Origin: an uncultured delta proteobacterium
Lineage (GTDB): Bacteria > Desulfobacterota > Desulfomonilia > Desulfomonilales > Desulfomonilaceae
Direction of reading: 5' to 3'
DNA: 64,000 bases
Assembly: GCA_963789265.1 (NCBI GenBank)
Contig: CAWBKB010000001.1
Location: forward strand, 512,001 to 576,000
The notes under the pieces were generated by a model, which searched no databases, was not told the DNA's origin, and worked only from the letters and a program-made list of their open reading frames with translations. A program made the position numbers and the translations under genes. Positions 7,688 to 24,856 of the stretch are shown in pieces; the first letter of the stretch is position 1; each line of letters begins with the position of its first letter.

Positions 7688-7727
7688 TTCGTGCTGCAAT
7701 TTTTCCTCACCGGTCTCCCGGAATAAA

Positions 7728-7938
7728 AGAGACTGACGCAAAATCAAGTATGAGGTCAAAATCATAGCACGATCAGGCTTGGTGTGTATTTCGTTGCCCT
7801 CACCCCAGCCCTCTCCCCGAGGGAGAGGGAGTCGTGGTGAAGCTGCTATTTGAGTCCCCTCGCCCTTTGGGAGAGGGCTAGGGTGAGGGGATTTCGTGAC
7901 ACGATTACTTGGATCAAAATGGTTTTGAGACAGTTTCT
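7728..7938. mobile_element. Non-autonomous MITE with IS1182-like ends
   Basis: AGAGACTGACGCAAAA ... TTTTGAGACAGTTTCT ends; internal CCCTCACCCCAGCCCTCTCCC/GGGAGAGGGCTAGGGTGAGGG palindrome; no ORF. Confidence 0.65.
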
Positions 7939-8069
7939 GTAGGCCCGGTCTTCTGGATCCTTCTCCATCGCTTCGTTGCCCTTTTCTTCGGTCCTTTTCT
8001 ATGGTATTATCATTGCATTACCCATGCCATTTAACAACCTCGGATTCCATCCTGCAATCGAGGGCACCC

Positions 8070-11000
8070 ATGAAACACGACGAGACCGGTCCGTGGCCGG
8101 CTAACGATGCGCCGAATCATTCCGATTTGCCGAATGGAGAGCTGGAAAGCCTGAAAAGTCGACTCCACTGGGCCCAGGAGAGCCAAGAAATGGCCGTGAA
8201 AATCCTGACCTTACTCAACGGCCAACTTGTGGGTCCGGACGTGATCCGGCGCGTCCTTGGAATGATGAAAGAATTCACCGGATTCGAGGCTGTCGGCATT
8301 CGCTTGCGCGATGGTGAAGATTTTCCCTACTTTGCAACCCAAGGTTTTCCCGATCATTTTGTCGAATGTGAAAGTTATCTGTGCGAACGCACTGCTGCCG
8401 GCGAAATCGTGCGGGATTCGTCTGGAAACCCGATCCTGGAATGCATGTGCGGAAATATAATACGCGGGCGAACGGACCCTTCGCTGCCTTTTTTCACCCA
8501 AGGTGGTAGTTTTTGGACGAACAGCACAACGGACCTTCTCGCCACGACATCTGAAGAAGAGCGTCAGGGTCGTACCCGAAATCGGTGCAACGGGGAGGGC
8601 TACGAATCGGTCGCCCTCATACCCCTGCGTTCAGAGCGCGAAATCATTGGCCTTCTGCAACTCAACGATTCTCGGAAAAATTGCTTCACACCCGACACGA
8701 TAAGTTTTTTTGAAGCGATAGGAGCCAGTATCGGTATTGTTCTTAAGCGCATGAGTGTGGAACAGGAACGGGATCGCTTGTTCAACTTGTCCATTGATAT
8801 GTTGTGCGTCGCCGGGTTTGACGGTCGCTTTAAACAGGTCAACCCCGCGGTCACGGAGATCCTCGGATGGACATCACAAGAGTTCTTGAGCAAGCCGTGG
8901 ACCGAGTTGGTGCATCCGGATGACCATGAAAAGACTAGAGCGGCAGGCAGGCGGCTGCTTTCCGGCGTCCCGTTGTACTCCTACGAAAATCGATATCTGC
9001 ACAAGGACGGCACGTATCGGTGGATTTCGTGGAACTGCTTTCCGATACCCGATGAAAGAACGACCTTTGCGGTAGCTCGCGATGTCACCGAGCCCAAGCG
9101 GTCCGAAGATGCACTGCGGAGAGCTAAGAATGAGCTTAAGTCCAGGGTGAAGAAGCGAACCGTACAACTGATGGCTACCATAGATCGCCTGCAAAAAGAA
9201 GTGACTGCACGCGAGCAGGCACAGGACGCACTGCGGCAGAGCGGAGAACGCTATCGAGCTCTCGTGGAAAATGTCCATGTGGGTATCTCGTTGATAGATT
9301 CGGATCACAATATAGTTGTATCGAATTCCGTCATTGGGAAATGGTTTAAGAAACCCGTCTCCGAGTTCAGCGGCAAGAAATGCTTCCGGGAATTTGAAAG
9401 ACGTGATGCTGTTTGCCCGCATTGTCCGGGAGTGCGAGCCATGGCCACCGGGCTGGCCGCGGAGGTGGAAACAGAGGGCGTGCTGGTCGATGGCACCCGC
9501 ATCGTTGCACGCGTACGAGCTTTTCCAATGTTCAGCCCGGATAATGTGCCCATCGGATTTACAGAGATTGTCGAGGACGTCAGGGAGCGCAAGCGATTGG
9601 AAGAGGCACTCCTGGAGAGCGAGCAACGCTACAGAAACCTCGTGGAGGAATCGCGAGACGGGATTTATTGGGCCGCTTGGGATGGCGCGCTGATTGAGGC
9701 TAATCAAGGGTTTCTGGAAGTGTTCGGCCTTACAACGGACGAGTCCAAGATTTGGAGTCTTATCCAGGCGTATCGTGATCCAGTCGACCGCATACGGTTC
9801 AAACAGACCATCGAAAGAAACGGATCTGTAGCGGACTATGAACTCAAGCTTAAGAAGAAGGATGGCACCGCGATCGATTGCATGCTCAGCGCAACGTTGC
9901 GTTTGGACGAAGAAGGCAAAAGTATCGGATACCAGGGTATCATCCGTGACATGACAGAACGCAAAAGACTCGAGCAGCAACTCCTGCGGGCACAAAAAAT
10001 GGAAGCCATCGGCACTCTCGCCGGAGGCATTGCTCACGATTTCAACAACCTTTTAACAGTGATACTCGGGTACTGTGAACTGATAATATCTGAGAAGAAC
10101 GAAGGGGATCGGGATTACGAAGACCTGAATAAGGTTATGCAGGCCGGTCGAACCGCGGCCGATATGGTTCAGCAAATTCTGGCTTTTAGTCGTAAGGCCG
10201 AAACCAAGGTCTGGCCAATTAACATCAATAAGCAGATTCCGCAGCTCAGGAAGATGCTTTCCAGACTGATTCCCAGGACCATAAAAGTCAGAATAAATCT
10301 GGCTCCCGAACTTCCCACGGTCAATGCCGACTCCGCCCAGATTGACCAGGTTCTGATGAATCTTGCAGTAAATGCGAGGGATGCGATGCCCGATGGCGGC
10401 AGACTGACAATCGAAACCAGGGCGGTAGTGTTGGACGAGGAGTATTGCAGCTCCCATATTGAAGCTTCCCAAGGGCTGCACGTGCTTCTTAATGTAAGTG
10501 ATACGGGGCTCGGAATTGATAAGGGGCTATTGGATCGGATATTCGAACCATTTTATACAACGAAAGAACCGGGTGAGGGGACCGGATTGGGCCTCGCTAT
10601 GGTTTACGGCATAGTCAAAGCCCACGGCGGGCATGTCACTGTCTACAGTGAGCCCGGCACGGGGACTGTCTTTAACATATACCTGCCGGCGCACCAGTTT
10701 GAGGTGGAACAGGATATTGCGACGTCCGGCGAATTTGCGGCATTAGGGTCCGGAACAATACTTTTGGCCGACGACGAGGATTCTGTGAGGTCCCTTGGGC
10801 AAAGAATCCTGGAAAAGTCCGGATACCACGTTCTTTCCGCAAAGAACGGGCGGGAAGCTGTTGCAATTTACCAACAGGAGAAAGACGAGATCTCGTTGGT
10901 TATCCTTGACCTTATCATGCCTGAAATGGACGGCAAACAGTGTCTGGAGGAAATTCTCAAAATAGACCCGGATGCGAAGGTGTTGTTGGCCAGCGGATAT

Positions 11001-11117
11001 TCTCCGGACGGGGAGACGAATCTCGCATTAGAGAGTAGAGCAAAGGGTTTTGTCCGAAAACCCTATAGCGTAAGGCACCTCCTTGAAGCGGTAAGAGACG
11101 TTTTGAAGAAGAAGTGA
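8070..11117 (+). CDS. Hybrid sensor histidine kinase (GAF, 3 PAS, HisKA, HATPase, REC)
   Basis: GGIAHDFNNLL H-box, NLAVNARDAM, GTGLGL, C-terminal receiver ILDLIMPEMDG. Confidence 0.93.
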   Translation: MKHDETGPWPANDAPNHSDLPNGELESLKSRLHWAQESQEMAVKILTLLNGQLVGPDVIRRVLGMMKEFTGFEAVGIRLRDGEDFPYFATQGFPDHFVECESYLCERTAAGEIVRDSSGNPILECMCGNIIRGRTDPSLPFFTQGGSFWTNSTTDLLATTSEEERQGRTRNRCNGEGYESVALIPLRSEREIIGLLQLNDSRKNCFTPDTISFFEAIGASIGIVLKRMSVEQERDRLFNLSIDMLCVAGFDGRFKQVNPAVTEILGWTSQEFLSKPWTELVHPDDHEKTRAAGRRLLSGVPLYSYENRYLHKDGTYRWISWNCFPIPDERTTFAVARDVTEPKRSEDALRRAKNELKSRVKKRTVQLMATIDRLQKEVTAREQAQDALRQSGERYRALVENVHVGISLIDSDHNIVVSNSVIGKWFKKPVSEFSGKKCFREFERRDAVCPHCPGVRAMATGLAAEVETEGVLVDGTRIVARVRAFPMFSPDNVPIGFTEIVEDVRERKRLEEALLESEQRYRNLVEESRDGIYWAAWDGALIEANQGFLEVFGLTTDESKIWSLIQAYRDPVDRIRFKQTIERNGSVADYELKLKKKDGTAIDCMLSATLRLDEEGKSIGYQGIIRDMTERKRLEQQLLRAQKMEAIGTLAGGIAHDFNNLLTVILGYCELIISEKNEGDRDYEDLNKVMQAGRTAADMVQQILAFSRKAETKVWPININKQIPQLRKMLSRLIPRTIKVRINLAPELPTVNADSAQIDQVLMNLAVNARDAMPDGGRLTIETRAVVLDEEYCSSHIEASQGLHVLLNVSDTGLGIDKGLLDRIFEPFYTTKEPGEGTGLGLAMVYGIVKAHGGHVTVYSEPGTGTVFNIYLPAHQFEVEQDIATSGEFAALGSGTILLADDEDSVRSLGQRILEKSGYHVLSAKNGREAVAIYQQEKDEISLVILDLIMPEMDGKQCLEEILKIDPDAKVLLASGYSPDGETNLALESRAKGFVRKPYSVRHLLEAVRDVLKKK

Positions 11118-11407
11118 AGGCTCCACCGCCTGAAGGCGGTGGCGTCGGCGGTACTTTCTTGCACCGGATGAATCAGGTGGTCGCGGCCGCCAAAGGACCG
11201 GAGTCGATATCGGCGTAGGATGCTGGTGAGCCCGCGCTCTGCGCGGGAGAACCGCATCAATCTGGAAAAAACACGAACGATGCGGTTCGCAGCGCTCACC
11301 AGCATCCTACCGGCATCTTTGCATCTGGTGCCGCGCATATACACTGGGTACGCACTGAAGTCTTCGCCTAAAGGCGAGGGTTTTTCTCGCATTCCCCGAG
11401 GGGGACA
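11114..11407 (-). mobile_element. Non-autonomous IS200/IS605-like element containing a nested GTAG REP doublet
   Basis: Minus strand starts after TTAT with a CCCTCGCCTTTAGGCGAAG hairpin and ends GCCACCGCCTTCAGGCGGTGGAGCCTTCAC; internal GTAGGATGCTGGTGAGC/GCTCACCAGCATCCTAC inverted repeat. Confidence 0.55.
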
Positions 11408-11660
11408 ATAATACAGCGAAGCGTATCCTTTCAGTTATCCGGGGTCATTGATCTGTTCCGACCGGTGTCATTGCGAGTCCTGCGTTCCGCGGGACGAAGC
11501 AATCTCTTCCTTTAACCCCCCTCAAATTGCCAGTGGGACGGGCATCCTGCCCGTCATCCATAATAGACAGGCAGGATGCCCGTCCCACTATTTGCTCCTC
11601 CCAATCCCAATCCCGTTCGCAAGTGAATGGTTAGTGCAAAGCCTCGATTTTGGACCACTT

Positions 11661-12152
11661 TCACCTGGTCTGTCTCTTTTTTTTCTTTGTCTCGATTTCT
11701 TCGCGGATCGAGGCCGGGTCACCGAAATAAATGCAGTGAGCCAGGCATACATTGTCCGCGCAGGCAGGAATAAGTCCCTGATCGACACGATGATGGCAGA
11801 GGTTGCACTTCAGCGCCTTTTGGCTGTTGTCGTCGAAGCCTATGGCATTGTACGGGCAGGCGTCAACGCAGCTTTGGCATCCCGTGCATGCGGCCTCGTC
11901 GAGTACCACGATTCCGTCTTCCCTCTTCGTGATCGCTCCCTCAGGGCAGGCATCGGCGCAGGGCGGATCGTCGCAGTGGCGGCAAACATTGACCCGATAC
12001 ATGTAATCAGTCATGCCGTCACCCAACGAAGGGCCTTCTTCAGTAGCCAGCAGGAACTTGGCCTTGAATTCAAATTCCTGGCTGCAGGCGGCCTCGCACG
12101 TCCGACAGCCCCAACATGCCTCGTCATCTATAATCAGCCCGTATTTGCTCAC
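11661..12152 (-). CDS. 4Fe-4S dicluster subunit (DmsB-like)
   Basis: CWGCRTCEAAC, CRHCDDPPCADACP, CTGCQSCVDACPY, KCNLC; overlaps the stop of the Mo enzyme gene. Confidence 0.9.
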   Translation of the reverse strand: MSKYGLIIDDEACWGCRTCEAACSQEFEFKAKFLLATEEGPSLGDGMTDYMYRVNVCRHCDDPPCADACPEGAITKREDGIVVLDEAACTGCQSCVDACPYNAIGFDDNSQKALKCNLCHHRVDQGLIPACADNVCLAHCIYFGDPASIREEIETKKKKRQTR

Positions 12153-14314
12153 TTGTCTGACCTCCCTTCAGGCGACTCCGGATAAATCTTGCAGAGAAAT
12201 GTTCTGATGGCGGTTCCGCCCATCGCAGGATCGCAGTTCTCGTAACTGTTGTCTGTTAGCATGTTTATGTTGGACTCCTGCCATGAACGTTGAAGATCTT
12301 TGTACTCCGGAAACCACCAACCGTGCTGCGCGAAGATGACTCGGGGGTCCATCCCGGCGAACAACTTGGCACGCTGTCGGATCTTGCCCTTTGGGGATTC
12401 AATAGTGACCCAGTCTCCGTCCTTTATGCCTTCTTTCTGCGCAGTTTCCGGGTGAATCTCAACAGTCGGGTCCTTGTGAAGCTCTCGAAGTACCGGAATT
12501 TGACGACCTTCGGAACAGAAAAATCCTGGTATTCGCCGCCCGGACACCATTATGTAGGGATATTCCTCGTAAAGTTCGGGAGCGCTGTACGGGCTGCCGG
12601 GCGCTTCATGATACTGGGGCACCGGATCGTATCCCATTTTATCCAAAACAGTGGAGTAAAGCTCCAGCTTCCTCGTCGGCGTGGAAAAACCCTCAGTTCG
12701 GTACTTTCGGTGTTTCACTTCTCCACGGATGTAATCCATTTCCTTGAACTGCTTCCACGTTATGCCCATAGGTTCGAGTATGTAATCAAGACCTTGTTCG
12801 AAATCGGGCCACCAGTATTCTCCAATTCCGACCCGGTTTGCCAGATCGTTGAGCATGTCATGATCGGATCGGCACTCTCCTACCTGGATGGCCTTACGCC
12901 TCGGCACAATGTATCCGTGACGTTTCCAGAAGTCCGCGATGTAATCCATTTCGAGCCACGTGGCTGCCGGGAGGACGATGTCCGCCAGAGCCGCGGTCGG
13001 GGTTATGAAGAAGTCGGAGACCGCCATGAAATCAACTGCTTTAAGTGCCTTATACACTTCCGCTGAATCAGCCCTGGTCAAGATTGGATTAGTGCTCAGG
13101 AGGAACAGCATCTTTACCGGATAAGGCTTTTCCTGAAGGATCGAGTCCCAAATCTTTTTGGGATTGAGTATTGCAAAGCGAGACCCTAACCTGAATTGGT
13201 CACCTCCGAGACGCTTTGTGAAATCTTCCCTGGCAAGCATCCCATGAGCACCGAATGATCCCACATTCCTTACATTGGGAGTCTGGAACAACATCTGCCC
13301 GCCAGGGACGTCCAGGTTGCCCGTGATAGCCATCAATGCAATCAGGCTGCGATCGTTATTCGTGAGATTGGCTTGAATCTCTACGCCGACCCCCCACTGG
13401 ATAGCCGCGGGCTTGGTCGTGGCAAACAAACGGGCCGCTTCTGCAATCTTTTCCTTGGGGACCCATGTGATCTGCTCTACCCGGTCCAGGGGCCATTCCT
13501 TGGTTCGCTGCACAAATTGCTCCCACCCGTGCGCGTAATTCTCGACAAATTCTTTGTCATAGAGCCCTTCCTCTATGATTACGTTGCACATTCCCAACGC
13601 CAAAGCGGCATCGGTGGTGGGCCTCAAACGAAGCCAAATGTTGGCTCGGGCAGCAATTCTGGTAAGCCTCGGGTCTATGGCGATCAGCTTGGCGCCTTCA
13701 TCCAGAGCCACTGAGAAGGGCTCGCCCTTGTATGAGTCGGGATTGCTGAAGACCAGATTGTTCCCCCACACCATGATGCATCTGGGCTTGTTTTCATAGT
13801 CCACGATCGGGTTGGAGCCGCACGTACTGATGGTTGTGGCAAGTCTTGGGCCGTAGCAGAAGTGGCCCGCTGTCAGCACATTTGGGCTGCCAAGCGTGTT
13901 GGCGAACCGATAGATAACGGCCTCATTGTCTCTGCCCGTGCCATAACCCATTACAATGGATTCAGCACCGTGACTTTCTTTGTAACGAAGTATTCTCTCA
14001 GCGATTGTGTTCAGAGCCTCATCCCATGAGATGCGCTCCCAGTTGCCGCCTCCCTTTGGCCCTATTCGCTTCACGGGGTAGGTCAGACGATCCGGATGAT
14101 GCGCCAATTGAATCGAGCCGATCCCCTTTGCGCACAACGTGCCGTGGTTTATGGGGCAATCCGGGTCACCGGCTATTTTCTTGGCCTTGCCGTCTTTGAC
14201 GTAAACCAGCACCCCACAGCCACCGTGACACATTCTGCAAGCACTTTTGACGACCGAGTCGTAGCCGTAGACCTCCATCTCACGAGCAACGTTCGAATAC
14301 TTAAATTCTGCCAC
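12149..14314 (-). CDS. Cytoplasmic molybdopterin (Mo/W-bisPGD) oxidoreductase, acetylene hydratase-like subfamily
   Basis: CRMCHGGC..CAKG Fe-S motif, WERISWDEA, GSPN..FC, ADIVLPAATWLE, C-terminal cofactor-binding domain; no Tat signal. Confidence 0.88.
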   Translation of the reverse strand: MAEFKYSNVAREMEVYGYDSVVKSACRMCHGGCGVLVYVKDGKAKKIAGDPDCPINHGTLCAKGIGSIQLAHHPDRLTYPVKRIGPKGGGNWERISWDEALNTIAERILRYKESHGAESIVMGYGTGRDNEAVIYRFANTLGSPNVLTAGHFCYGPRLATTISTCGSNPIVDYENKPRCIMVWGNNLVFSNPDSYKGEPFSVALDEGAKLIAIDPRLTRIAARANIWLRLRPTTDAALALGMCNVIIEEGLYDKEFVENYAHGWEQFVQRTKEWPLDRVEQITWVPKEKIAEAARLFATTKPAAIQWGVGVEIQANLTNNDRSLIALMAITGNLDVPGGQMLFQTPNVRNVGSFGAHGMLAREDFTKRLGGDQFRLGSRFAILNPKKIWDSILQEKPYPVKMLFLLSTNPILTRADSAEVYKALKAVDFMAVSDFFITPTAALADIVLPAATWLEMDYIADFWKRHGYIVPRRKAIQVGECRSDHDMLNDLANRVGIGEYWWPDFEQGLDYILEPMGITWKQFKEMDYIRGEVKHRKYRTEGFSTPTRKLELYSTVLDKMGYDPVPQYHEAPGSPYSAPELYEEYPYIMVSGRRIPGFFCSEGRQIPVLRELHKDPTVEIHPETAQKEGIKDGDWVTIESPKGKIRQRAKLFAGMDPRVIFAQHGWWFPEYKDLQRSWQESNINMLTDNSYENCDPAMGGTAIRTFLCKIYPESPEGRSDK

Positions 14315-14316
14315 GT

Positions 14317-15183
14317 TTAATCCTCCTGTTGTGCAGCCGGCTCCTGCGACGTCCGGAACATTGACGTATTTGCGTGTCCCGCGCCTACGTGCGGGGCGCC
14401 TCCAATCAATTCGGAAAATCTCTTTGCCGCGGCCGCGATATCGGCGCCGAATTCCTTCGCGAAATCCTGCGGAAAAGTTCCTACAATCGCCATCGATCCC
14501 ATGAGCCGTCCCCCGGGACCGAACACCGGCGAAGCCACCGCATTAATGCCGATTTTCATTTCGCCCAGATCCAAAGCAAACCCGGTTCTTCGGCATTGGT
14601 CCAATTCCTGCTCAAGGCGATGCAGATCAAACCTGGAGGGACCGCCGTGGAAATAGGGCTTCGAACTGCCAAGGACCTTTTTTCGTTCGGTATCGGGCAG
14701 GAAGGCTACTATCGCCTTTCCATGAGCGCCCCAAGCAATGGGGAATCTGTGCCCGAGTCTGATGGTCAATCCGATTTCCTGCGTACCTTCGTCTCTGGCG
14801 ACAACGAACACGTGATTTTCTGAGACCACCCCCAAGAAAGCAGTGCTGTTCGTTTTGCATGAAAGCTCTTGAAGAAAAGGGGCCGCAACCTCTCGTATGT
14901 CGAGACCGGTCAAGACTCTGTTGGCCAAGAAAAGCAGACCGAGTCCCAGAGAATAAGTCTTGTCATTGGGGGATTTTTGGACAAATGCGAACTGTTGCAA
15001 GGTGTTCAGGATAGAATATCCCTTGCTCTTGTGAATGCCCACTTCGTTGCAAATCTCGGTCAAACTCATCTTTGCAACGGGGGCTTGAGCGAGCGCGAGC
15101 AAAATGCGTGAAGCCTGCTCCACCGCAGGGACAACCGAGGAATATTGGGGTTTGGCTGGAGCAGACTCTCTCTTCGATGCCAT
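14317..15183 (-). CDS. IclR family transcriptional regulator
   Basis: VPAVEQASRIL..HTH, GAHGKAIVAF, GINAVASPVF. Confidence 0.92.
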   Translation of the reverse strand: MASKRESAPAKPQYSSVVPAVEQASRILLALAQAPVAKMSLTEICNEVGIHKSKGYSILNTLQQFAFVQKSPNDKTYSLGLGLLFLANRVLTGLDIREVAAPFLQELSCKTNSTAFLGVVSENHVFVVARDEGTQEIGLTIRLGHRFPIAWGAHGKAIVAFLPDTERKKVLGSSKPYFHGGPSRFDLHRLEQELDQCRRTGFALDLGEMKIGINAVASPVFGPGGRLMGSMAIVGTFPQDFAKEFGADIAAAAKRFSELIGGAPHVGAGHANTSMFRTSQEPAAQQED

Positions 15184-15259: not shown

Positions 15260-15428
15260 CACAATCCCTGACCCATAATCCCCCAACAAATGAGATGGTG
15301 AATTATGGTTTTATGATCATATCGCAGACCGTACCGTCATGGGTTACCTCTGGCAGTTCTTGAACCGATGTGTGGAATGGAGCGGGAACTATTAGCAGTT
15401 CCCGAAAGTACTCGCGGATTGACATAAT

Positions 15429-15528
15429 GGGTGCCACTGCTGGCTTGACCAGCAGTGCTTCTTATGGCGATTTTCACAAGTTTGCTCTGAAGGGAGTCGC
15501 ACTGCTGGTCGAGCCAGCAGTGGCACCC
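15429..15528. repeat. REP-like doublet, 30 bp inverted repeats
   Basis: 15429-15458 and 15499-15528 match at 29/30 as reverse complements; each arm is itself palindromic. Confidence 0.8.
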
Positions 15529-15539
15529 GCGGTGGTATT

Positions 15540-15878
15540 ATGGACGACATCCTCATCCTTGCCCCGGCACAATGGAAACTCAAGAAGACCATACGGGTGT
15601 TGAACCAGACATTCAATGAGCTGAAGTTGGAAAAACACCCCGACAAAACCGCTATGGGGCGAATCGAGAAGGGATTCGATTTCCTCGGGTATCACTTCAG
15701 TCCGCAAGGACTGTCTCTCGCACAGAAGACCATCGACAACTTCGTCGAAAAAGCTCTCCGGCTTTATGAGCAAGAGCCGCCCCATCGAAGGATGAAGCGG
15801 CTCGGAGAGTACAGCCATAGGTGGGTTGGCTTGCAGCGTTGGTTTAGGCGTTCTCACCTTATGATGTTATGGGAATGA
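15540..15878 (+). pseudogene. C-terminal fragment of a reverse transcriptase
   Basis: MDDILIL (xMDD active-site remnant), LEKHPDKT, GFDFLGYHF; N-terminal RT domains absent. Confidence 0.8.
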
Positions 15879-17229
15879 GACCGAGACACCTCCCCCCGGC
15901 CCGAATGTTAGTGGGGGTGGGACAAAACCGTTGACCAGGAAGATGCCGTTACTAATATGTGCTCTCGCCTCCAGAAACAAGCGGGCCGGTTATACAGCCG
16001 CTGCGGGCGCTGATGTCGGTGAGCACTTCCAGACGGAAGTTCGGCTCAGTGGCTCCTGATGATATTAGGACGGAATCAAGGAAGCCTCCGGAGAGGAGAT
16101 TGCACCAACAAAATGTTGCAGTCGATGTCGTTACGGGCGGGATCGGATCTGTTAGCGGAGGGTTAGGATATAAATGCTCAAACGCGATTGTCGGGGCGAT
16201 GAGAACGCTTCCCTTAAGGTTAGGGCATACTGCAGGATTCGTACGTGCGAGCACAACCGCTTCCGGCTGATGCCAATACCGCTTGACCTTCAACCCCAAC
16301 AACCTTCTCAAGTCTCGGGGGCTCCTGAACACCGGCTCAGGCATGGTGAATGGGCTCTCGAAACTCAGCAGATTCTCCAACTGGAAGCCTACGTTCACGA
16401 ATCCGCCCACCGTATTGTAATAGCCGTCGATCCGGTCGTGCCCGTATTCGTATCTCAAAGTAAAGACGCCGTCTCTCGTAGTGAGGTCCGCGCCGCCCCG
16501 CCAGCCGTACACCGCGGTCCCGATATCAAACTGGTACCCGATGAGCTTGAGCCGCAAATCCAGAGACCGATTGAACAATGCATGTGAATAGCCGGCCTCA
16601 ACGTCAAAGCTATTCCCCTTGTTCCTGAAGGCATTGATGAGGACATCTCTATTGAAGAGGTTCCCGTACCAGTTGAAGTTCAGGTCAATGGCATCGTCTC
16701 CGGCAACGTTCGCTGCCATTTCCAGCCCGACTCCTCCGGATGAATACCACGTGTTGAACAGACGGGAAGAATCGTAGAAGCCGTTCACTCCCAGAAAGGT
16801 GTTCGTGCCCAGCATCGTGCGGTAACCGCCGCCGAAAGACAAATCGACCCTATTGTTCGTTCCCCCGGAAGATCTCTTCCAGAAATTCCAGCCTTCCGCA
16901 TGAGCCTCTCCGAACAGCACGGAATCACGGCTCACGCTAAAAGGGAGAACATAATCCGCAGTGAATCGCCCGGTACTCACCCTGTTGCCGAAATAGTCCA
17001 GGAAACCGAGTTCCAGGTTAGGGATTTTGGGGAGAAAAGGCGCAAGCATGCCACTGGACAGGGGTATGGCATCGCTCTCCCGAGAACATCCGCAATCGTT
17101 CGATGGATTGCTCTGACCGGGAAGTTCCGGGAGACCTTGTGCGTCCACAAAGGTGGAGAGAGTGCAGGCGAAAAGAAATAGGAAAGGCAGGACGAGCAGA
17201 ATCCACGCGGAAGGACGCGATTCCTCCAT
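15867..17229 (-). CDS. Inverse autotransporter (intimin/invasin-like) beta-barrel protein; ORF stops at 15952, possibly extending to 15867 via a frameshift
   Basis: Signal peptide; SFGGGYR, FLGVNGFYD, GVGLE, NFNWY strands; alternative frame gives ..TFGPGGGVSVSFP*. Confidence 0.7.
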
Positions 17230-18598: not shown

Positions 18599-20674
18599 TC
18601 ACAAACGCCGCTCGACAAGGATGACGGAAATCTCTCCCTCTCCGTACTGTTCCAGGTAGCGGCGATCCACTCCCACACAATGATCTATGTAGCAGCATCG
18701 GGCTTTAAGACATGCTTTCGGCGTCTCATTGTGCCCCATGTTGTCGGCATTGCTCACCATGTCATCGGCTTCTCGCCTCTTGATGCGCACTTCGTTCCGG
18801 CAGTTCCCAATATGTGGCAGGTGAGGAGCAATACAATAAGGCACGTTGTCAAGAATTGTCAGCGGATATTCCTGCGAGTTTATAGTGGACAATTTTTCTT
18901 TTAGAGAAGAGAGTCGGCACATGCGGCCTCTGTTGACATAAGCATTTCCATCCCATTCGGGCAGACACAGGCAATGGGCAGTAGTGCCGGCGAATCCCAG
19001 AATTTTATCCATGAGCCATTCTATCTCAGGCAGATTAAGTTCGTTAAGGCATGTGTTGACGCTAAGCCGTTCGGGTGAAACGTCATTTATCAGGCTGACA
19101 GCTCTGTACGCTTCCACAAAGCTGCCTTTCCGCCTGACGATTCGGTCGTGTGTTTCTCCGACCCCGTGCAGGGAAACCCAGAAATTCTTCATTCCCGCAT
19201 TTGTAAGTGAGAAAACCAGCTCTTCGGTTATTCCGAACCCATTGGTAAACATGAACAAGTTGTCGATTCCGTGTTCTTTTGCGAAACGAACGTAGTTCAC
19301 AAGCGAGGGGTTCAGAGTGGGTTCACCCGCGCCTGTAAAGAAAAGGGTCTTGATCCCTGCGCGGCTGGACTCCTCAATGAAATCGAATACTTCTTGATCC
19401 AAGTTAGGCGGGTTCTTACTCCTATCGTATGCCGGTGCGCAAAAGATGCAGTTGTTGGTGCACTCGAAACTTGAAAATACTACCGCCCCGGGTTCAGGCC
19501 ATCCCCAGACCAATGATCGCGATTTATCTGCACGGGTCGCGGTCCAGCCCTGCCATTTTTTCGGGTTGGTGAGAACCCGGTCTTCAACGAACGCGAATAC
19601 CTTTTTGTAAGTTTCACAGTACGGATCGGGGTGATCAGGGCTGCCTTCAGCGCTCATTGCTCTTACCGGACAGCCGCCATTGCAAAGTGGCAAATATTTG
19701 CAATCAAGGCATTCTGAGTTGCCGATCAAATTGGCCGTCCGCTCGGCGAGTTTCATTCTCATCGGCGATGTCAACAGCATGCCGAGATCATCGGATTCGA
19801 GAAGATTGCCAAAATTCCGGTCAGGATAGGAGCCCATCCACGCATCGCATTGACTCACTTCACCGCCGGGCCCGACGCAGAAAAAGCCATTTACGCAGTT
19901 TGGGCAGAAGAAGCACGGAATCTTTGCCGCAGCATCCCCCAATGTTATCCGTTCTACGATTCCCTCGTAAGGATCCAAGCGAACTCCGTCATCCCCGGAG
20001 AAGTAAACATCAAGCAGACCGACTAAGAAATCGCCCAGCATCGATGGGTCCAGGAACAATTGATCCGCCAGATGGGAAGCCGGTCCCGAGGCGAAGGGGG
20101 TATTCAATTGAATGCTCTTTAAGCCCAATTCATCTACGTAATACCGGTAAAAGTCCGAAGGGGACACTGAGAGAGTCTGTTTGTTGGGGACCGATATCAC
20201 GGACGCAGACAGGCCTCTGGAGCGAGCAATTCTGTACCTGTCAGCCCAGTGCTCATTATATGAATCGCCCGACAGGCCGCGGAATCTCCGGTGTACATTG
20301 GGATAATCCAGGGACGACCCGACGGTTCCGTCAAAAAGTTCCCATATCACCGGGTCCCAAACGGGATCGTAATCCATGAGGTTGGTCTGCAAATAAAGTT
20401 TAATTTTCAGATTGTGATTTGACATGAACGATCTTATCATACGGCCCGCTGTCAGACACCACTCGGGAGATAGAACCGTAATTTCTCCACCTTGCCAGTA
20501 CACGTCGACACTCTTAACTCCGGAGCGCGAAAGATACGAAGATATGCGGCTGAAAACAGTTTCCAAGTCTTCGAGGGACATGCTTTCCCGAGTTCTTGGT
20601 TCGAAACAGTACGCACAATTACAATTGCAATGGAAAGTAGGCACAAATATTATACTTACTTGAGGGCCGAACAT
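18599..20674 (-). CDS. Protein with two radical SAM domains (rSAM-SPASM fused to a second rSAM with a Cys-rich tail)
   Basis: CNCNCAYC and WQGGE; SPASM C..C..GEVSQC, CLDCKYLPLCNGGC..PYC; second CTNNCIFC and GAGEPTL; CLKARCCYIDHCVG tail. Confidence 0.88.
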   Translation of the reverse strand: MFGPQVSIIFVPTFHCNCNCAYCFEPRTRESMSLEDLETVFSRISSYLSRSGVKSVDVYWQGGEITVLSPEWCLTAGRMIRSFMSNHNLKIKLYLQTNLMDYDPVWDPVIWELFDGTVGSSLDYPNVHRRFRGLSGDSYNEHWADRYRIARSRGLSASVISVPNKQTLSVSPSDFYRYYVDELGLKSIQLNTPFASGPASHLADQLFLDPSMLGDFLVGLLDVYFSGDDGVRLDPYEGIVERITLGDAAAKIPCFFCPNCVNGFFCVGPGGEVSQCDAWMGSYPDRNFGNLLESDDLGMLLTSPMRMKLAERTANLIGNSECLDCKYLPLCNGGCPVRAMSAEGSPDHPDPYCETYKKVFAFVEDRVLTNPKKWQGWTATRADKSRSLVWGWPEPGAVVFSSFECTNNCIFCAPAYDRSKNPPNLDQEVFDFIEESSRAGIKTLFFTGAGEPTLNPSLVNYVRFAKEHGIDNLFMFTNGFGITEELVFSLTNAGMKNFWVSLHGVGETHDRIVRRKGSFVEAYRAVSLINDVSPERLSVNTCLNELNLPEIEWLMDKILGFAGTTAHCLCLPEWDGNAYVNRGRMCRLSSLKEKLSTINSQEYPLTILDNVPYCIAPHLPHIGNCRNEVRIKRREADDMVSNADNMGHNETPKACLKARCCYIDHCVGVDRRYLEQYGEGEISVILVERRL

Positions 20675-20677
20675 AAT

Positions 20678-21520
20678 CTACTCCGCGACCTCTTCCGCTT
20701 TAGCAAGGTCATCGGCGATTTCCTTCGCGTTCACTTTGATCGCATTAAAAACTTCGAGAAAAGGTCCGCAGTCGAAGTCAGTGTCAACAAAACGAAGGTA
20801 GCCTTCACATAAATCGAACCTCTCGCAAGAAACGCATTTGGAACCGGACAAGACAAGGTCCTTTTTGCGGTTTATCAATTGCTTGTAAAGATCGGATTCT
20901 TCATCAATTTGCAGACCACCGGAAACCTCACCCAAGAACTTCCCGGCGCGGGCAAGTCTGGCAGAAGCCGTAACTCTTCCCAATTCGTCGACATAGAGGA
21001 ATTCCGACGGAGATTCAGGATAAAGTTTCGGGAGCGCCAACACGTTTCCTCTCAAACAGGCGCTGATCATGGAATGGAAAAAATCAACCGGAACCTGCAC
21101 ATGAGTGTCGTGCAAATAATAATTCAGTACGGACAACAGTTCACTTGTATCTGACAGCTCTTCAAGGTCCATCGTGACAGGGACCATAGCCGAGGCCGCG
21201 ATCTTCACACCTTGCAGGAGCCCTTTGTCCACATTAATAAGAGCTTCGAGTGAGAACCGATCGACGAGCCAGGTATTTGTGTAGAGCTGAGGAGCGCACT
21301 TTGGATGCAATTTGAGCCGAATCGGAAGCTGCAGCGGAAGAGCCGACAAACTATGCAGGTTCTCACTCGGATATTCCAACTCCACTCCCTTTACTCGATC
21401 GCCCAGCGTTTTATATGTGTTCACGATATCTCCGCAATTCCCTGAACGCAGGACGATATCATGAGAGTCGACTTCAGCAGCCAATCTCGGAGGAATACTT
21501 ATCAATGCTGAATTATGCAT
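20678..21520 (-). CDS. SPASM-like domain protein lacking a radical SAM CxxxCxxC motif
   Basis: ATG at 21520 overlaps the upstream stop (ATGCATAA) after GAGG; FLYVDELGRV..FLGEV, CVSCERFDLCEG..DC. Confidence 0.75.
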   Translation of the reverse strand: MHNSALISIPPRLAAEVDSHDIVLRSGNCGDIVNTYKTLGDRVKGVELEYPSENLHSLSALPLQLPIRLKLHPKCAPQLYTNTWLVDRFSLEALINVDKGLLQGVKIAASAMVPVTMDLEELSDTSELLSVLNYYLHDTHVQVPVDFFHSMISACLRGNVLALPKLYPESPSEFLYVDELGRVTASARLARAGKFLGEVSGGLQIDEESDLYKQLINRKKDLVLSGSKCVSCERFDLCEGYLRFVDTDFDCGPFLEVFNAIKVNAKEIADDLAKAEEVAE

Positions 21521-22601
21521 CAACTGCCTCGAAAAATTCCTTGTACCCTTCACACCAGATAGTCTTTCGCAGCCGCCCGGAAGCTGCCGCGCAGCCCCCG
21601 GCGCAATATTTCCACCAATTACAGGAACCGCACTCGTTTTGCGTGATCAACTTTCTCCTTTGGGAACGCCAAAACGCGTCGGGGTGAGATAGTAACTTGT
21701 CAAGCGGCTCAGAGGTTATGTTGCCGATTTTACCGGACGCGATGTCGAGGAGTCTCACGCACGGATAAACGTCACCTTCCGGCGAGATAGCCAAAGTAGG
21801 CTCGCAACAGTTCAGAGACTCAGAGTACGTCCGAGTGGAATCAGAGTCAACTGACGAAATTTCTTCCCAATTTACGAACGGTTCGACGGGCAACGAACTA
21901 TCGTCCCCTTTCCATGCGCGGTGAACTTCTCTGAGAAAAAGCCCCCAGGATCGCGGGTCCAGACGGGCACCTTCGAACGTATTCGCGGGCTCTTCAAGAG
22001 GTATAAGAGTTAGGCTATCCACTCCCAGGTTCTTGAAATAGTAATAGATTTCCTTGCCACGGTCTATTGATCGACCGTGCACAACATACACCATTCCAAC
22101 GTGAAATCCGCGACTTCTGACAATCTCGAAGCCCTCATACCAACGTTTCAGATAAGAGTCCCCGTTCTTGAGCCTCCTATAGTCCTGGAACGGATCAAGA
22201 GAAGTCCCGATCCCGCCTCCATTCAGAAGCTCGGCCAGAGTGTCTGCAAGCCCTTCTGTTGCCAACGTCAAATTGGACTGCATTATGTGCATCGGGCTGT
22301 TCTTGAGGATCGTTCGGTTTAGCTCCAAGACCTTCTTGTAAAAGGGCTCGCCCATCAGCATGGGTTCTCCCCCATGCCATAGGATTGTCATGTGACAGCC
22401 CGGATTTCCTTCCATGTAATTCGCGAGATTTCGGAACGTGCATTCAACGAGGGCGGGATCGGCGATTTTCGGCCTTTCTGCGACATTGCAGTAAGCGCAC
22501 TTCCCGTTGCATTGGAGAGTCGGTTTGATAACAACTTCAATGCACTTGGGCGCTTCACAGTTATTTTCAGAGGTATATGCCATAGTCAGTGGAGCCGCCA
22601 A
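21513..22601 (-). CDS. Radical SAM/SPASM peptide maturase (anSME-like); alternative start ATG 22583
   Basis: KPTLQCNGKCAYC, WHGGEPML, QSNLT, CCEPTLAISPEGDVYPC, CGSCNWWKYCAGGC..WC. Confidence 0.9.
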   Translation of the reverse strand: MAAPLTMAYTSENNCEAPKCIEVVIKPTLQCNGKCAYCNVAERPKIADPALVECTFRNLANYMEGNPGCHMTILWHGGEPMLMGEPFYKKVLELNRTILKNSPMHIMQSNLTLATEGLADTLAELLNGGGIGTSLDPFQDYRRLKNGDSYLKRWYEGFEIVRSRGFHVGMVYVVHGRSIDRGKEIYYYFKNLGVDSLTLIPLEEPANTFEGARLDPRSWGLFLREVHRAWKGDDSSLPVEPFVNWEEISSVDSDSTRTYSESLNCCEPTLAISPEGDVYPCVRLLDIASGKIGNITSEPLDKLLSHPDAFWRSQRRKLITQNECGSCNWWKYCAGGCAAASGRLRKTIWCEGYKEFFEAVDA

Positions 22602-22759: not shown

Positions 22760-22791
22760 CCTCTCCTGATTCGCGGGCAAATCAGGAGAGG
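22760..22791 (-). other. Perfect 12 bp stem-loop between the precursor and first maturase gene
   Basis: CCTCTCCTGATT-8nt-AATCAGGAGAGG with no U-tract on the minus strand. Confidence 0.7.
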
Positions 22792-22833
22792 AAGCATGCT
22801 GTCGCTGGTCGTGAGCCTGCAACCCCCACCAGA

Positions 22834-23187
22834 CTACCAATTACCCCACACACGGCGGTGCCGCCGCCGCCAGGGCCTGTTGCCCCACACACGGCAGCCG
22901 CCGTTACCCCACACGCGGCATCCATACCACCGCCTACCGCCGTTACCCCACACTCGGCAGCGCAAGAACTGAGATTCCATGGACTCGTCGTTTGTCCCCT
23001 CCTGGTCTGGGAGACCTTCGCGGGTCGCACCCGGTTCCAACGATTCCCTCGGTCCTTCGTCGGAGCCGGATGCTTCGGAAATCCCCAGGACAGCAGTGGC
23101 CACCACTATCGACGACCATTTGCCGAGACTCGTGAGAAATGATCTCCTGCTTAGAGTCTCGTCGTCTTTCTTGTTCTTGTCGTCCAT
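22834..23187 (-). CDS. Putative RiPP precursor (117 aa) with twin-arginine signal and four RVWGN repeats
   Basis: GGAGGA RBS before ATG 23187; SRRSFL plus hydrophobic stretch; acidic linker; core CRVWGNGGRRWYGCRVWGNGGCRVWGNRPWRRRHRRVWGNW; directly upstream of rSAM genes. Confidence 0.85.
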   Translation of the reverse strand: MDDKNKKDDETLSRRSFLTSLGKWSSIVVATAVLGISEASGSDEGPRESLEPGATREGLPDQEGTNDESMESQFLRCRVWGNGGRRWYGCRVWGNGGCRVWGNRPWRRRHRRVWGNW

Positions 23188-23348
23188 TTTATCTCCTCCA
23201 AACGAAACCAAAACAATCGGTTAATCTGAATGAATTTTCCTGTGCGCACATCGGCCGGTCCTGGAAACACCCGGCCCACTCAATCACTAATTCTCCAACC
23301 CAAGAGCAACTTCGTGCAAGGCCGTTCACCCTTAAAAGAAGCCCCTGG

Positions 23349-23834
23349 CTATTTCCCCGGTGGAGGCGGTTGCTCGGGGAACGAGAAATGGGACTGAATC
23401 AGGAGCCATTTGCCGTCCTTCTTCTCAAGCACTCCCGACCATAGACCCATTTGCTGAAACTTGTCTTCCCCGGTATCGACGTCGAACAACACCTCGGTGG
23501 CAAACCACCCCACGTCATCCTTAGACCCGACCGACGTCCATTTGTACTGTCCCTTTACCGATTTTACTTCCTTTAGACTGCCCTCATAAGCCGCTCTGAC
23601 CTGGTCCGTGCCTACGTAGCGCCCTTTTTCGTCGGCTTCAAAGAAAACCACGTTAGCTTCTGGCGCAATCATCTTCATTATTGCGTTCACGTCCTTCTTC
23701 GAATAGGCCGCTTGAAATTGAGCGAGGAAGTTTTTGATCTCTTGGTCGGTCTTGGAATCTGCCGTTGCGACTGTCGTCGCCCCGATTGTAATTGCCGTCG
23801 CGATACTCAGCACCAGTAGAATTGCACTTCGCAT
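23349..23834 (-). CDS. Secreted SnoaL-like/NTF2-fold protein
   Basis: Signal peptide; AAYSKKDVNAI, WSGVLEKKDGKWLLIQSHFSFP. Confidence 0.85.
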   Translation of the reverse strand: MRSAILLVLSIATAITIGATTVATADSKTDQEIKNFLAQFQAAYSKKDVNAIMKMIAPEANVVFFEADEKGRYVGTDQVRAAYEGSLKEVKSVKGQYKWTSVGSKDDVGWFATEVLFDVDTGEDKFQQMGLWSGVLEKKDGKWLLIQSHFSFPEQPPPPGK

Positions 23835-24208: not shown

Positions 24209-24856
24209 ATGGAAATTAATCGAAAACTGAGCATATTATTGGTCCTGGTGGCCGTATCATTCGCCGTGACCACAGTATCGGTTTTGCCTGCGTGGGCGGC
24301 CACCGGCAAGTCCAAACAGGCCTCTGTAAAGGCCAAGAAACGGCATTTGTCCTACAGGGCGAGGCGGATAAAAAAAGTCAACGGCTCCTATATTCCGCAA
24401 GCGCAGCCGCGAACCGTTGCGAGTGCTCCTGCCACGGTCTGTTATGGAAGTTGGCAGCAATCCTTGTATGGGCCGGTCTATACATCATGGTGCCAAGCAG
24501 CAACCGCTTCCAGTCAAGGCTCCGGACAGGCTGAAGGCTGGGCCGCACCGGCACGATCGTCCGGGAGACAAAGCGGGGCAGCACCCCCGGCCGGTGGATA
24601 CGCTCCCCCACCCCAGCAGGTAAATGTCATTAGCCCGCCAGCAAGCGTCTGTTACAGCGGTTGCGTTCCTTATTGGACCGGTCAGGTTTACTCATCGTGG
24701 TGTCAGCCGGCCACCGCCTACAACGCTAACTCCGAACAAACAACTAACTGGGCAGTCCCGGCTCAAACGTACAGAACTCAGAGCTATGCGGCCCCTCAGG
24801 CCGGTCAACCCGGTACTGTCTGCAATGTTGGCAGTTGGCTGCCTTGTTGGTGGTAG
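24209..24856 (+). CDS. Secreted Cys/Trp-containing repeat protein
   Basis: GGAGA RBS, signal peptide ..LPAWA, basic segment, two ~60-70 aa repeats plus a partial third. Confidence 0.7.
   Translation: MEINRKLSILLVLVAVSFAVTTVSVLPAWAATGKSKQASVKAKKRHLSYRARRIKKVNGSYIPQAQPRTVASAPATVCYGSWQQSLYGPVYTSWCQAATASSQGSGQAEGWAAPARSSGRQSGAAPPAGGYAPPPQQVNVISPPASVCYSGCVPYWTGQVYSSWCQPATAYNANSEQTTNWAVPAQTYRTQSYAAPQAGQPGTVCNVGSWLPCWW

Follow-up and report, generated by a model that had tools for sequence, protein, structure and literature searches.

Two radical-SAM domains of different subfamilies in one polypeptide of a RiPP-like operon from an uncultured delta proteobacterium

Can one gene encode two complete radical S-adenosylmethionine (SAM) enzymes of different kinds, and on what would such a pair act? 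The question is raised by an open reading frame (ORF) of 691 aa on the minus strand, at 18599..20674 of a 64,000-nt stretch of DNA from an uncultured delta proteobacterium of the Desulfomonilaceae (assembly GCA_963789265.1, contig CAWBKB010000001.1, positions 512,001 to 576,000); the whole stretch is referred to here as the window. An initial annotation, which left the strand unstated, had described two complete radical SAM (rSAM) domains in this ORF, and had cautioned that an indel hidden in a run of six A residues (A6) between them might have joined separate genes. The gene fusion is genuine and no assembly artefact. The gene is likely to encode a bifunctional maturase of a peptide made by the ribosome and modified after translation (RiPP), in which two competent, tethered rSAM domains would work on one leader-bound repeat precursor. 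The operon is conserved, uncharacterised and RiPP-like, and it probably cross-links a small exported peptide of Cys-Arg-Val-Trp-Gly-Asn repeats.

The fused gene and its junction

The features of the gene are as follows.

18599..20674, minus strand: fused protein, with an N-terminal rSAM/SPASM domain, a linker and a C-terminal HxsC-like rSAM domain (ORF, Pfam and NCBIfam matches, fused orthologues)
20606..20629, minus strand: first rSAM cluster motif, CNCNCAYC (C16, C20, C23), from the translation, invariant in 15/15 orthologues
19616..19915, minus strand: SPASM auxiliary-cluster region of the N-terminal half, C254 to C353 (translation, invariant Cys, alignment to anSMEcpe)
19484..19570, minus strand: linker between the domains (residues 369-397), which holds the A6 run (19556-19561) and the conserved LVWGWPEPGA (translation, locus comparison, a spanning 151-nt contig)
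19439..19462, minus strand: second rSAM cluster motif, CTNNCIFC (C405, C409, C412), from the translation, invariant in the orthologues and in the wider family of the C-terminal half
19310..19333, minus strand: GAGEPTLN, the SAM-binding (GGE-type) motif of the second domain, residues 448-455, whose G, E, P and T do not vary in the orthologues or the wider family
18677..18835, minus strand: Cys tail of the second domain (C614 ... C655, C660, C666), invariant in the orthologues, with conservation in the wider family and a model alignment running through the tail

Radical_SAM (PF04055) matched the protein in two stretches, at 85.4 bits against a cut-off of 29.5 (Pfam matches were reported at E<=0.01). 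The NCBIfam models, of which the best 25 of 68 matches were listed, divided the protein cleanly into residues 8-368 and residues ~399-558. Residues 1-368 (the N-half) are an anSME/DynA-like rSAM enzyme with a full SPASM motif, and residues ~398-691 (the C-half) are an HxsC/SkfB-like rSAM enzyme with a shorter Cys tail. Both halves have what defines the radical SAM superfamily, ie a CxxxCxxC motif together with a significant model match. The SAM-binding glycine motif of the N-half is WQGGE, at residues 60-64. Both CxxxCxxC motifs, the GGE and GEPT motifs, the SPASM Cys and the tail residues C614, C655, C660 and C666 are invariant in 15/15 aligned orthologues. On the translated sequence both domains keep every residue required for a SAM-cleaving cluster and for SAM binding, as had been claimed of two complete domains, the second with a GEP motif after its CxxxCxxC. 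Two reactions, which had been implied as well, are a reasonable inference from two intact and invariant sets of active-site motifs.

The linker is about 30 aa in length, a little under the 35 or so first estimated, and is conserved in part; the A6 run within it encodes K372-K373. Reading from the sequence, one A fewer in this run would bring a stop 25 codons on. Frame breaks do occur elsewhere in the operon in related metagenome-assembled genomes (MAGs), within the N-half in loci L012 and L018 and within the neighbouring enzyme rSAM362 in L011. An indel of sequencing or assembly that falsely merged two neighbouring genes is nevertheless largely refuted already, and hardly any credence is left to it. 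Among 80 loci confirmed in contigs of one genome per species, 10 match through residue 672-688, all of them from Desulfomonilaceae, Thermodesulfobacteriota or 'delta proteobacterium' MAGs. Of these independent species loci, 8/10 have an ORF that runs unbroken for 683-698 aa, and the two broken ones, L012 and L018, are not interrupted at the junction. Seven of the eight intact loci have no homopolymer at the A6 site, which reads AAGAAA, AAGAAG, AAGATT or CACCTC; the eighth has CAAAAA, and the frame is continuous throughout. Because the frame is open in 8/10 loci although the codons at the site differ, the fusion is real and the suspected indel is very improbable.

Full-length fused homologues, which were to be looked for as a check, were found. 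A word-index search, which was unable to show stand-alone relatives under 380 aa, returned 17 protein clusters at 56-82% identity and at least 92% query cover, and a further one, P0019, at 77% cover. Fourteen of these 18 clusters, of several sources and at 56-82% identity, are full length with both CxxxCxxC motifs and four are N-terminally truncated. The observation that the second domain has no in-frame ATG with a ribosome-binding site also held: the linker contains no in-frame ATG or GTG, and the sole alternative start, a TTG (L388), has no Shine-Dalgarno-like sequence ahead of it. A 151-nt contig from another, soil-metagenome run is identical over 19497-19647, across the site, and gives weak support, since that run is possibly from the same study as the window. 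Contigs of two soil-metagenome runs cover the gene only in parts. Of 61 genomes sampled from the family, 10 had a match in open frames of 671-714 aa (one holding a TGA inside the match) and one more had a clearly interrupted copy. A copy was present in 7/7 genomes sampled from the window's genus, and of 401 genomes sampled from the phylum only the window's genome and one other carried the fusion.

The two halves

SPASM domains have seven Cys downstream of the rSAM core, in the pattern CX9-15GX4C, gap, CX2CX5CX3C, gap, C. In the N-half these are C260-x10-G-x4-C276, then C322-x2-C325-x5-C331-x3-C335, then C353, all invariant, and a direct reading of them, with C16, C20 and C23, agrees with the full SPASM first described. 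NCBIfam models for DynA (E 6e-34), TIGR04083 (9e-33) and anSME (TIGR03942, 4.7e-30) align end to end with residues 8-368, as do DarE and DarW. The nearest named models are thus those of the Trp-cross-linking enzymes DynA, DarE and DarW, plus anSME. The triceptide equivalog models were not reached. YhhB (NF041707) scored 55.4 bits on the whole protein against a cut-off of 445, and GrrM/OscB (TIGR04261), AmcB (NF041718) and FxsB (TIGR04269) were not among the 25 best of the 68 matches listed.

The C-half comes from a different rSAM subfamily, as was suspected, its nearest relatives being HxsC4, HxsC and SkfB. Searched alone, its top NCBIfam match was HxsC4 (NF038332; E 8e-22, 77.8 bits against a cut-off of 500), over the core only, and HxsC (TIGR03977) scored 35.1 bits against 267.9, over the rSAM core of the model only; by curated cut-off it falls outside both families. 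In NCBIfam the stretch matched, residues ~399-558, corresponds to the cores of MoaA-, NirJ- and HxsC4-type enzymes. A profile search of sequences in the PDB found SkfB (E 6e-27), BlsE and PqqE, each over the core only. An AlphaFold model of the C-half (predicted local distance difference test, pLDDT, 85; alignment of 19 sequences) was nearest to SkfB, with a Foldseek E of 2e-11 and a template-modelling (TM) score of 0.59, and in VIA a Z of 20.2 with a root-mean-square deviation of 2.9 over 238 residues. NifB, PFL-AE, viperin and BlsE lie within about 2 Z units of SkfB and are effectively tied with it, so that no function follows for the C-half from its likeness to SkfB.

The Cys that had been listed for the tail of the second domain are all present; of the tail Cys only C614, C655, C660 and C666 are invariant in 15/15 orthologues, while C625 and C661 (the second C of the 'CC') are not. 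In the distant C-half family the CxxxCxxC, GEPT, C614 and C660 are invariant and C666 is kept in at least 90%. The tail Cys are presumed from this conservation to be the site of a single auxiliary Fe-S cluster. In the model the tail looks like a shortened SPASM/twitch-type auxiliary-cluster domain, because the alignments of anSME and ChlB run through it, covering the whole C-half model (residues 13-311, Z 17-18).

The operon, its precursor and related clusters

Four further genes lie upstream of the fusion on the same strand.

20678..21553, minus strand: p291, a putative pseudo-rSAM/SPASM accessory protein of 291 aa (fold matches, no CxxxCxxC, four invariant Cys near the C-terminus)
21513..22601, minus strand: rSAM362, a separate rSAM/SPASM enzyme, DynA/anSME-like (Pfam Radical_SAM and SPASM, NCBIfam, found in 11/11 loci)
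22834..23187, minus strand: predicted precursor peptide, 117 aa from MDD, with a twin-arginine-like leader, an acidic spacer, three CRVWGN units and one RRVWGN (frame conservation, repeats)
23349..23834, minus strand: p161, a protein of the SnoaL_3 (NTF2-like) family whose N-terminus resembles a signal peptide, encoded upstream of the precursor (Pfam SnoaL_3, 62 bits against a cut-off of 22)

The order is precursor, rSAM362, p291 and, last, the fusion, whose ATG lies three bases from the p291 gene. An all-against-all comparison found these four gene families in 11/11 fused-type loci and p161 in 7/11; no other gene, a protease or transporter included, was conserved across all 11 loci compared. 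No Pfam or NCBIfam family matched p291. It lacks a CxxxCxxC, and C240, C243, C249 and C262 are invariant in 26 sequences. Its model (pLDDT 91) has ChlB (TM 0.58-0.61), anSME (0.63) and SuiB as best folds, and its C-terminal third aligns on the SPASM region of the N-half (hhalign, probability 68%, E 5e-5). We read p291, from the model, as a radical-SAM/SPASM fold that would have lost SAM chemistry and kept one cluster site. DynA, TIGR04083 and anSME matched rSAM362 at 135-139 bits, all under their cut-offs.

The precursor ORF spans 22834..23211 (a frame of 125 aa) and its frame is conserved in 10/10 related loci. An alternative frame at 22782..23030, with CGVTA-like repeats, is not conserved across those 10 loci and was ruled out. 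Aligned, the related precursors have an invariant leader (MDD..., SRRxFL, LGKWS and a hydrophobic stretch), then a variable acidic spacer, and end in 2-5 copies of C-R-V-W-G-N with rare variants W-G-H and G-R-V-W-G-N. In the window's own leader SRRSFL, the hydrophobic stretch and EASG are visible, and W-G-N is found in every repeat. One related species (L015, 5120..5852) has two tandem precursor genes, one of them with W-G-H for W-G-N in three units.

The other 70 of the 80 loci match the N-half only, at 31-41% identity. In 65/70 a p291 homologue lies immediately upstream of the stand-alone N-half-like enzyme, 44/70 have a SnoaL-like gene, and any C-half-like gene is present in only 4/70. The simpler base cassette comprises a SnoaL-like protein, a precursor with W-x-N repeats, a pseudo-rSAM protein and one N-half-like enzyme, which in most base loci is the only rSAM enzyme detected with the queries used. 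It occurs in Thermodesulfobacteriota, Acidobacteriota, Verrucomicrobiota, Planctomycetota, Pseudomonadota and further phyla. An ORF with an RRxF[LIVM] leader lies upstream in 41/64 of the loci with a plus-strand p291. Of these 41 precursors, 39 have a Gly-rich core with 3-17 W-x-N motifs and just two have any Cys in the core; in many, an A-x-A site immediately precedes the first W-x-N, an arrangement like that of a cleavable signal peptide. Three base-cassette precursors were scanned: one came just below the cut-off of TAT_signal (TIGR01409; 16.2 against 16.7 bits), and one bears a weak resemblance to the GrrA/OscA1 model (20.7 bits, cut-off 31). No NCBIfam model reaches its cut-off on the base-cassette enzymes, the nearest being DynA, anSME, DarW and DarE, and because of this the cassette counts as uncurated. 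From these comparisons we infer that the N-half is orthologous to the lone active enzyme of a W-x-N repeat cassette, and that the second domain and rSAM362 are additions to it, alongside which the repeat shifted from G-G-x-W-x-N to C-R-V-W-G-N.

A paralogous cluster of three genes is present in the same genome (L089, contig C7:308000-324000, 8441..11119, minus strand). Its precursor, of 223 aa, combines a spacer rich in His, Lys and Glu with G-x-W-x-N units and three units of CRVWGNGG; beside it are a homologue of p291 (45% identity) and a stand-alone homologue of the N-half (373 aa, 57%). No closer stand-alone copy of this homologue was found in the sampled genomes, where its best matches are fused genes. 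A quick tree places it in a clade of 97% support with all 15 fused sequences, as a polytomy with P0017 and P0018; because of the polytomy, loss of a C-half and descent from before the fusion are indistinguishable as its history.

The C-half has relatives in many other arrangements. An exhaustive profile search gave 3,982 representatives at E<=1e-30. At least two CxxxCxxC motifs, and up to 4, are present in 131 of the top 150. By architecture, 128 of these 150 consist of two to five C-half-type stretches, some partial, with no other domain, seven are C-half-SPASM, one has two C-half stretches and then SPASM, seven are p291 fusions, one has the window's own order and six are single-domain. The ranking favours multi-copy proteins, since bits add up, and these proportions are no census. 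Representative tandem proteins cover the whole of the HxsC4 model and score 248-279 bits with HxsC, whose cut-off is 268. Among the tandem proteins is a large metagenomic set, P0143-P0288, of 585-1580 aa, with two to five tandem HxsC-like rSAM stretches and up to four CxxxCxxC motifs, of which we found no description in the open-access literature searched. By sequence, the second domain belongs, distantly, to an HxsC-like lineage that habitually forms multi-rSAM polypeptides.

The reverse order, a C-half followed by an rSAM362-like SPASM enzyme, occurs in an ORF of 692 aa in L080 and in P0025-P0028 and P0030, with P0029 an N-terminally truncated copy. Fusions to the pseudo-enzyme are found as p291 then C-half in P0021 and P0022, and as C-half then p291 in P0031. 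The L080 cluster (7698..14953, a Fermentibacteria MAG) brings together an N-half-like enzyme, a YSDWN-repeat precursor, the 692-aa fusion and a p291 homologue; its precursor leader ends in a lipobox-like LKTGC, and the locus also has a 657-aa rSAM protein with an N-terminal extension, possibly cobalamin-binding. Such alternative orders, as Rosetta-stone evidence, point to joint action, as one complex, of four components that otherwise lack annotation: SPASM enzyme, HxsC-like enzyme, pseudo-rSAM protein and repeat peptide.

Stand-alone forms of the C-half were rare in the searches run, about seven near-full-length proteins of 306-332 aa at 23-30% identity; closer short matches were fragments or lay on very short contigs. 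In seven loci with stand-alone or differently fused C-half-like genes (L120-L126) there was no p291 and no clear common substrate feature. One of them, L121 (7077..10323, contig 72 of the same-family genome G148), has a stand-alone C-half-like rSAM protein of 345 aa adjoining an rSAM/SPASM enzyme of 531 aa, and upstream a possible precursor, a protein of 180 aa that has a leader-like DRGTFLKALG and Trp in its C-terminus; this may be another paired system.

Proposed role, alternatives and known systems

In the proposed scheme, tethering of the two rSAM domains of different subfamilies would let both work on one leader-bound precursor, with its leader resembling a twin-arginine-type signal and its 2-5 C-R-V-W-G-N units. 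OscB is described as joining Trp C7 to C-beta of Asn or Asp in W-x-N/D motifs (PMC11002830) and triceptides as defined by aromatic-X-X motifs (PMC11002830, PMC11499958). By analogy with triceptide synthases such as OscB, the N-half probably closes each W-G-N into a three-residue cyclophane, from Trp to the C-beta of Asn. Action of an N-half-type enzyme on W-x-N is suggested because it is the lone rSAM enzyme detected in most base loci and W and N are the sole conserved core residues. rSAM362 and the HxsC-like domain would probably make further modifications on or near C-R-V, which, with low confidence, could be a Cys-derived thioether or another cross-link. The protein p291 would probably be a substrate-holding scaffold. 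Since the loci conserve neither a dedicated transporter nor a protease, export of the modified peptide is probably by the general twin-arginine translocation (Tat) or secretory (Sec) route, and the peptide would act in the periplasm alongside the SnoaL-like protein.

Several results weigh against this scheme. No NCBIfam match of the fused protein came near a curated cut-off, and no functional family can be assigned to it by homology. PF13186 (SPASM) was not reported for it at E<=0.01, nor was TIGR04085 among the 25 best of its 68 NCBIfam matches listed; both match the neighbouring rSAM362. The paralogous cluster on contig C7 contains no C-half, no second rSAM domain and no rSAM362. CRVWGN units can therefore coexist with a maturase that lacks a second domain, unless the window's enzymes act in trans, and given that cluster the C-half is not obviously needed in cis for these units. 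The L080 cluster has a C-half-like domain and its precursor repeats are Cys-free, which weakens the thioether guess. No signal model, TIGR01409 included, matched the window's precursor at the thresholds used, and the twin-arginine resemblance could be an enzyme-recognition motif instead of an export signal.

The contig C7 cluster, which works on similar repeats without any C-half, is also what favours a different view of the second domain, as a non-catalytic pseudo-enzyme or scaffold with only one radical reaction left to the protein. One cluster-less radical-SAM fold, p291, is already there to set the precedent. We think this very improbable, since p291 is wholly without a CxxxCxxC, whereas C405, C409, C412 and GEPT are invariant in the orthologues and in the distant family, which would be unexpected for a dead domain. 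Still less likely is that the N-half is an enzyme of the anaerobic sulfatase-maturase type, which modifies a folded protein rather than the adjacent peptide. The anSME models are among its top matches, in the E value given above for TIGR03942 and in the alignment of residues 4-368 to anSMEcpe (PDB 4k37, E 8e-13), but TIGR03942 scored 104.9 bits, far under its cut-off of 349.45. The repeat peptide adjoins the enzyme in 11/11 fused-type loci and p291 adjoins it in 65/70 base loci, and no sulfatase gene was noticed beside the locus.

A further alternative concerns the biological role and is compatible with the enzymology of a bifunctional maturase. In the published HXS system, HxsB (rSAM/SPASM), HxsC (a shorter rSAM enzyme) and the small protein HxsD mature HxsA, an HxS-repeat effector with a signal peptide that is anti-phage and periplasmic (PMC13128918). 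The present operon might be an HXS-like maturation module, whose two rSAM activities modify a signal-bearing repeat effector working in the periplasm, for example as an anti-phage barrier. The best NCBIfam match of the C-half is HxsC4, other families including HxsC follow, and the tandem relatives come up to the HxsC cut-off. The substrate likewise has a signal-like leader and repeats, beside a signal-bearing SnoaL-like neighbour. Nevertheless this role appears unlikely. HXS membership requires an HxsA with His-Xaa-Ser repeats and an HxsD; the repeats here are CRVWGN, there is no peptidoglycan-binding domain, and no HxsD model matched among the operon proteins scanned. The window's domain scores 35 bits with HxsC (cut-off 268) and 78 with HxsC4 (cut-off 500), PADLOC gave weak, generic viperin-like core matches only, and no defence genes were seen among the neighbours.

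A wider suggestion, which goes beyond the bifunctional maturase and is offered as a speculation more doubtful than probable, is that HxsC-like rSAM domains follow a so far undescribed architectural pattern, being routinely strung together, with 2-4 CxxxCxxC motifs per polypeptide, or grafted onto SPASM cyclophane synthases and a pseudo-rSAM scaffold. They would form tethered 'radical-SAM assembly lines' in which three active and one dead rSAM domains put two or three orthogonal cross-links into each CRVWGN unit of 6-8 residues in a Tat-exported peptide. That peptide could then be an HXS-like barrier or a metal- or ligand-binding peptide in the periplasm.

Four known systems share parts of this arrangement and a fifth enzyme is the nearest solved structure. 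Like the triceptide synthases (OscB/GrrM, XncB, YhhB, ChlB), the locus has an rSAM/SPASM enzyme beside a precursor of aromatic-X-Asn repeats, here W-G-N; it differs in its twin-arginine-like leader, its obligatory pseudo-rSAM partner and the second rSAM domain fused on. Fused rSAM and alpha-ketoglutarate (alpha-KG)-HExxH proteins of the ChlB type were reportedly described by Morishita et al. in Nat Chem in 2024 (PDB entries 9gm3/9gmc). In ChlB too, an rSAM/SPASM enzyme of the cyclophane type carries a further fused domain that tailors the same peptide, but the partner there is an alpha-KG oxygenase and here a second radical-SAM domain. The HXS system also pairs a SPASM rSAM enzyme with an HxsC-like one and has a repeat-bearing signal-peptide substrate, whereas here the enzymes are fused, the repeats are CRVWGN in place of HxS, and the scores are far under the family cut-offs. 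FbiC, the F0 synthase, is, according to PMC11917521, a fusion of CofG and CofH, separate genes in other lineages, in which each domain forms its own 5'-deoxyadenosyl radical. It shares with the present protein two radical-SAM domains in one polypeptide, and differs in making a cofactor from small molecules, in its unrelated rSAM subfamilies, and in having no SPASM or peptide substrate. SkfB, the twitch-type rSAM thioether synthase of the sporulation killing factor, is the best solved relative of the C-half and likewise a RiPP maturase with one auxiliary-cluster domain; identity to the C-half is only 17-21% and the Cys-tail pattern is another. The present protein combines the themes of FbiC, ChlB and HXS, and falls under none of the triceptide, HXS, HxsC or anSME definitions that could be applied here.

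In the open-access literature searched there was no description of an rSAM-rSAM fused peptide maturase, only FbiC and titles on ChlB-type fusions, and none of rSAM peptides with twin-arginine leaders. A natural fusion of two different radical-SAM maturases offers a one-protein handle on the ordering of several radical reactions on one peptide, and modification of the C-R-V-W-G-N unit could yield ring types that have so far gone undescribed. Attention is also drawn to a RiPP-like cassette that is widespread and uncurated; its precursors resemble export substrates, and functionally it comes closest to an anti-phage system of the periplasm that was described recently.

Two other observations were made in the window. 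At 24209..24856, on the plus strand, a 215-aa signal-bearing protein with no family match has two Cys/Trp/Tyr-containing units (VCYGSW...WCQ.ATA), and is conserved beside the SnoaL-like gene in L009, L011, L013 and L018. At ~15370..15880, between the operon's downstream genes and an IclR-like regulator, lie short ORFs which, by eye only, resemble a reverse-transcriptase fragment of the group II intron or retron type.

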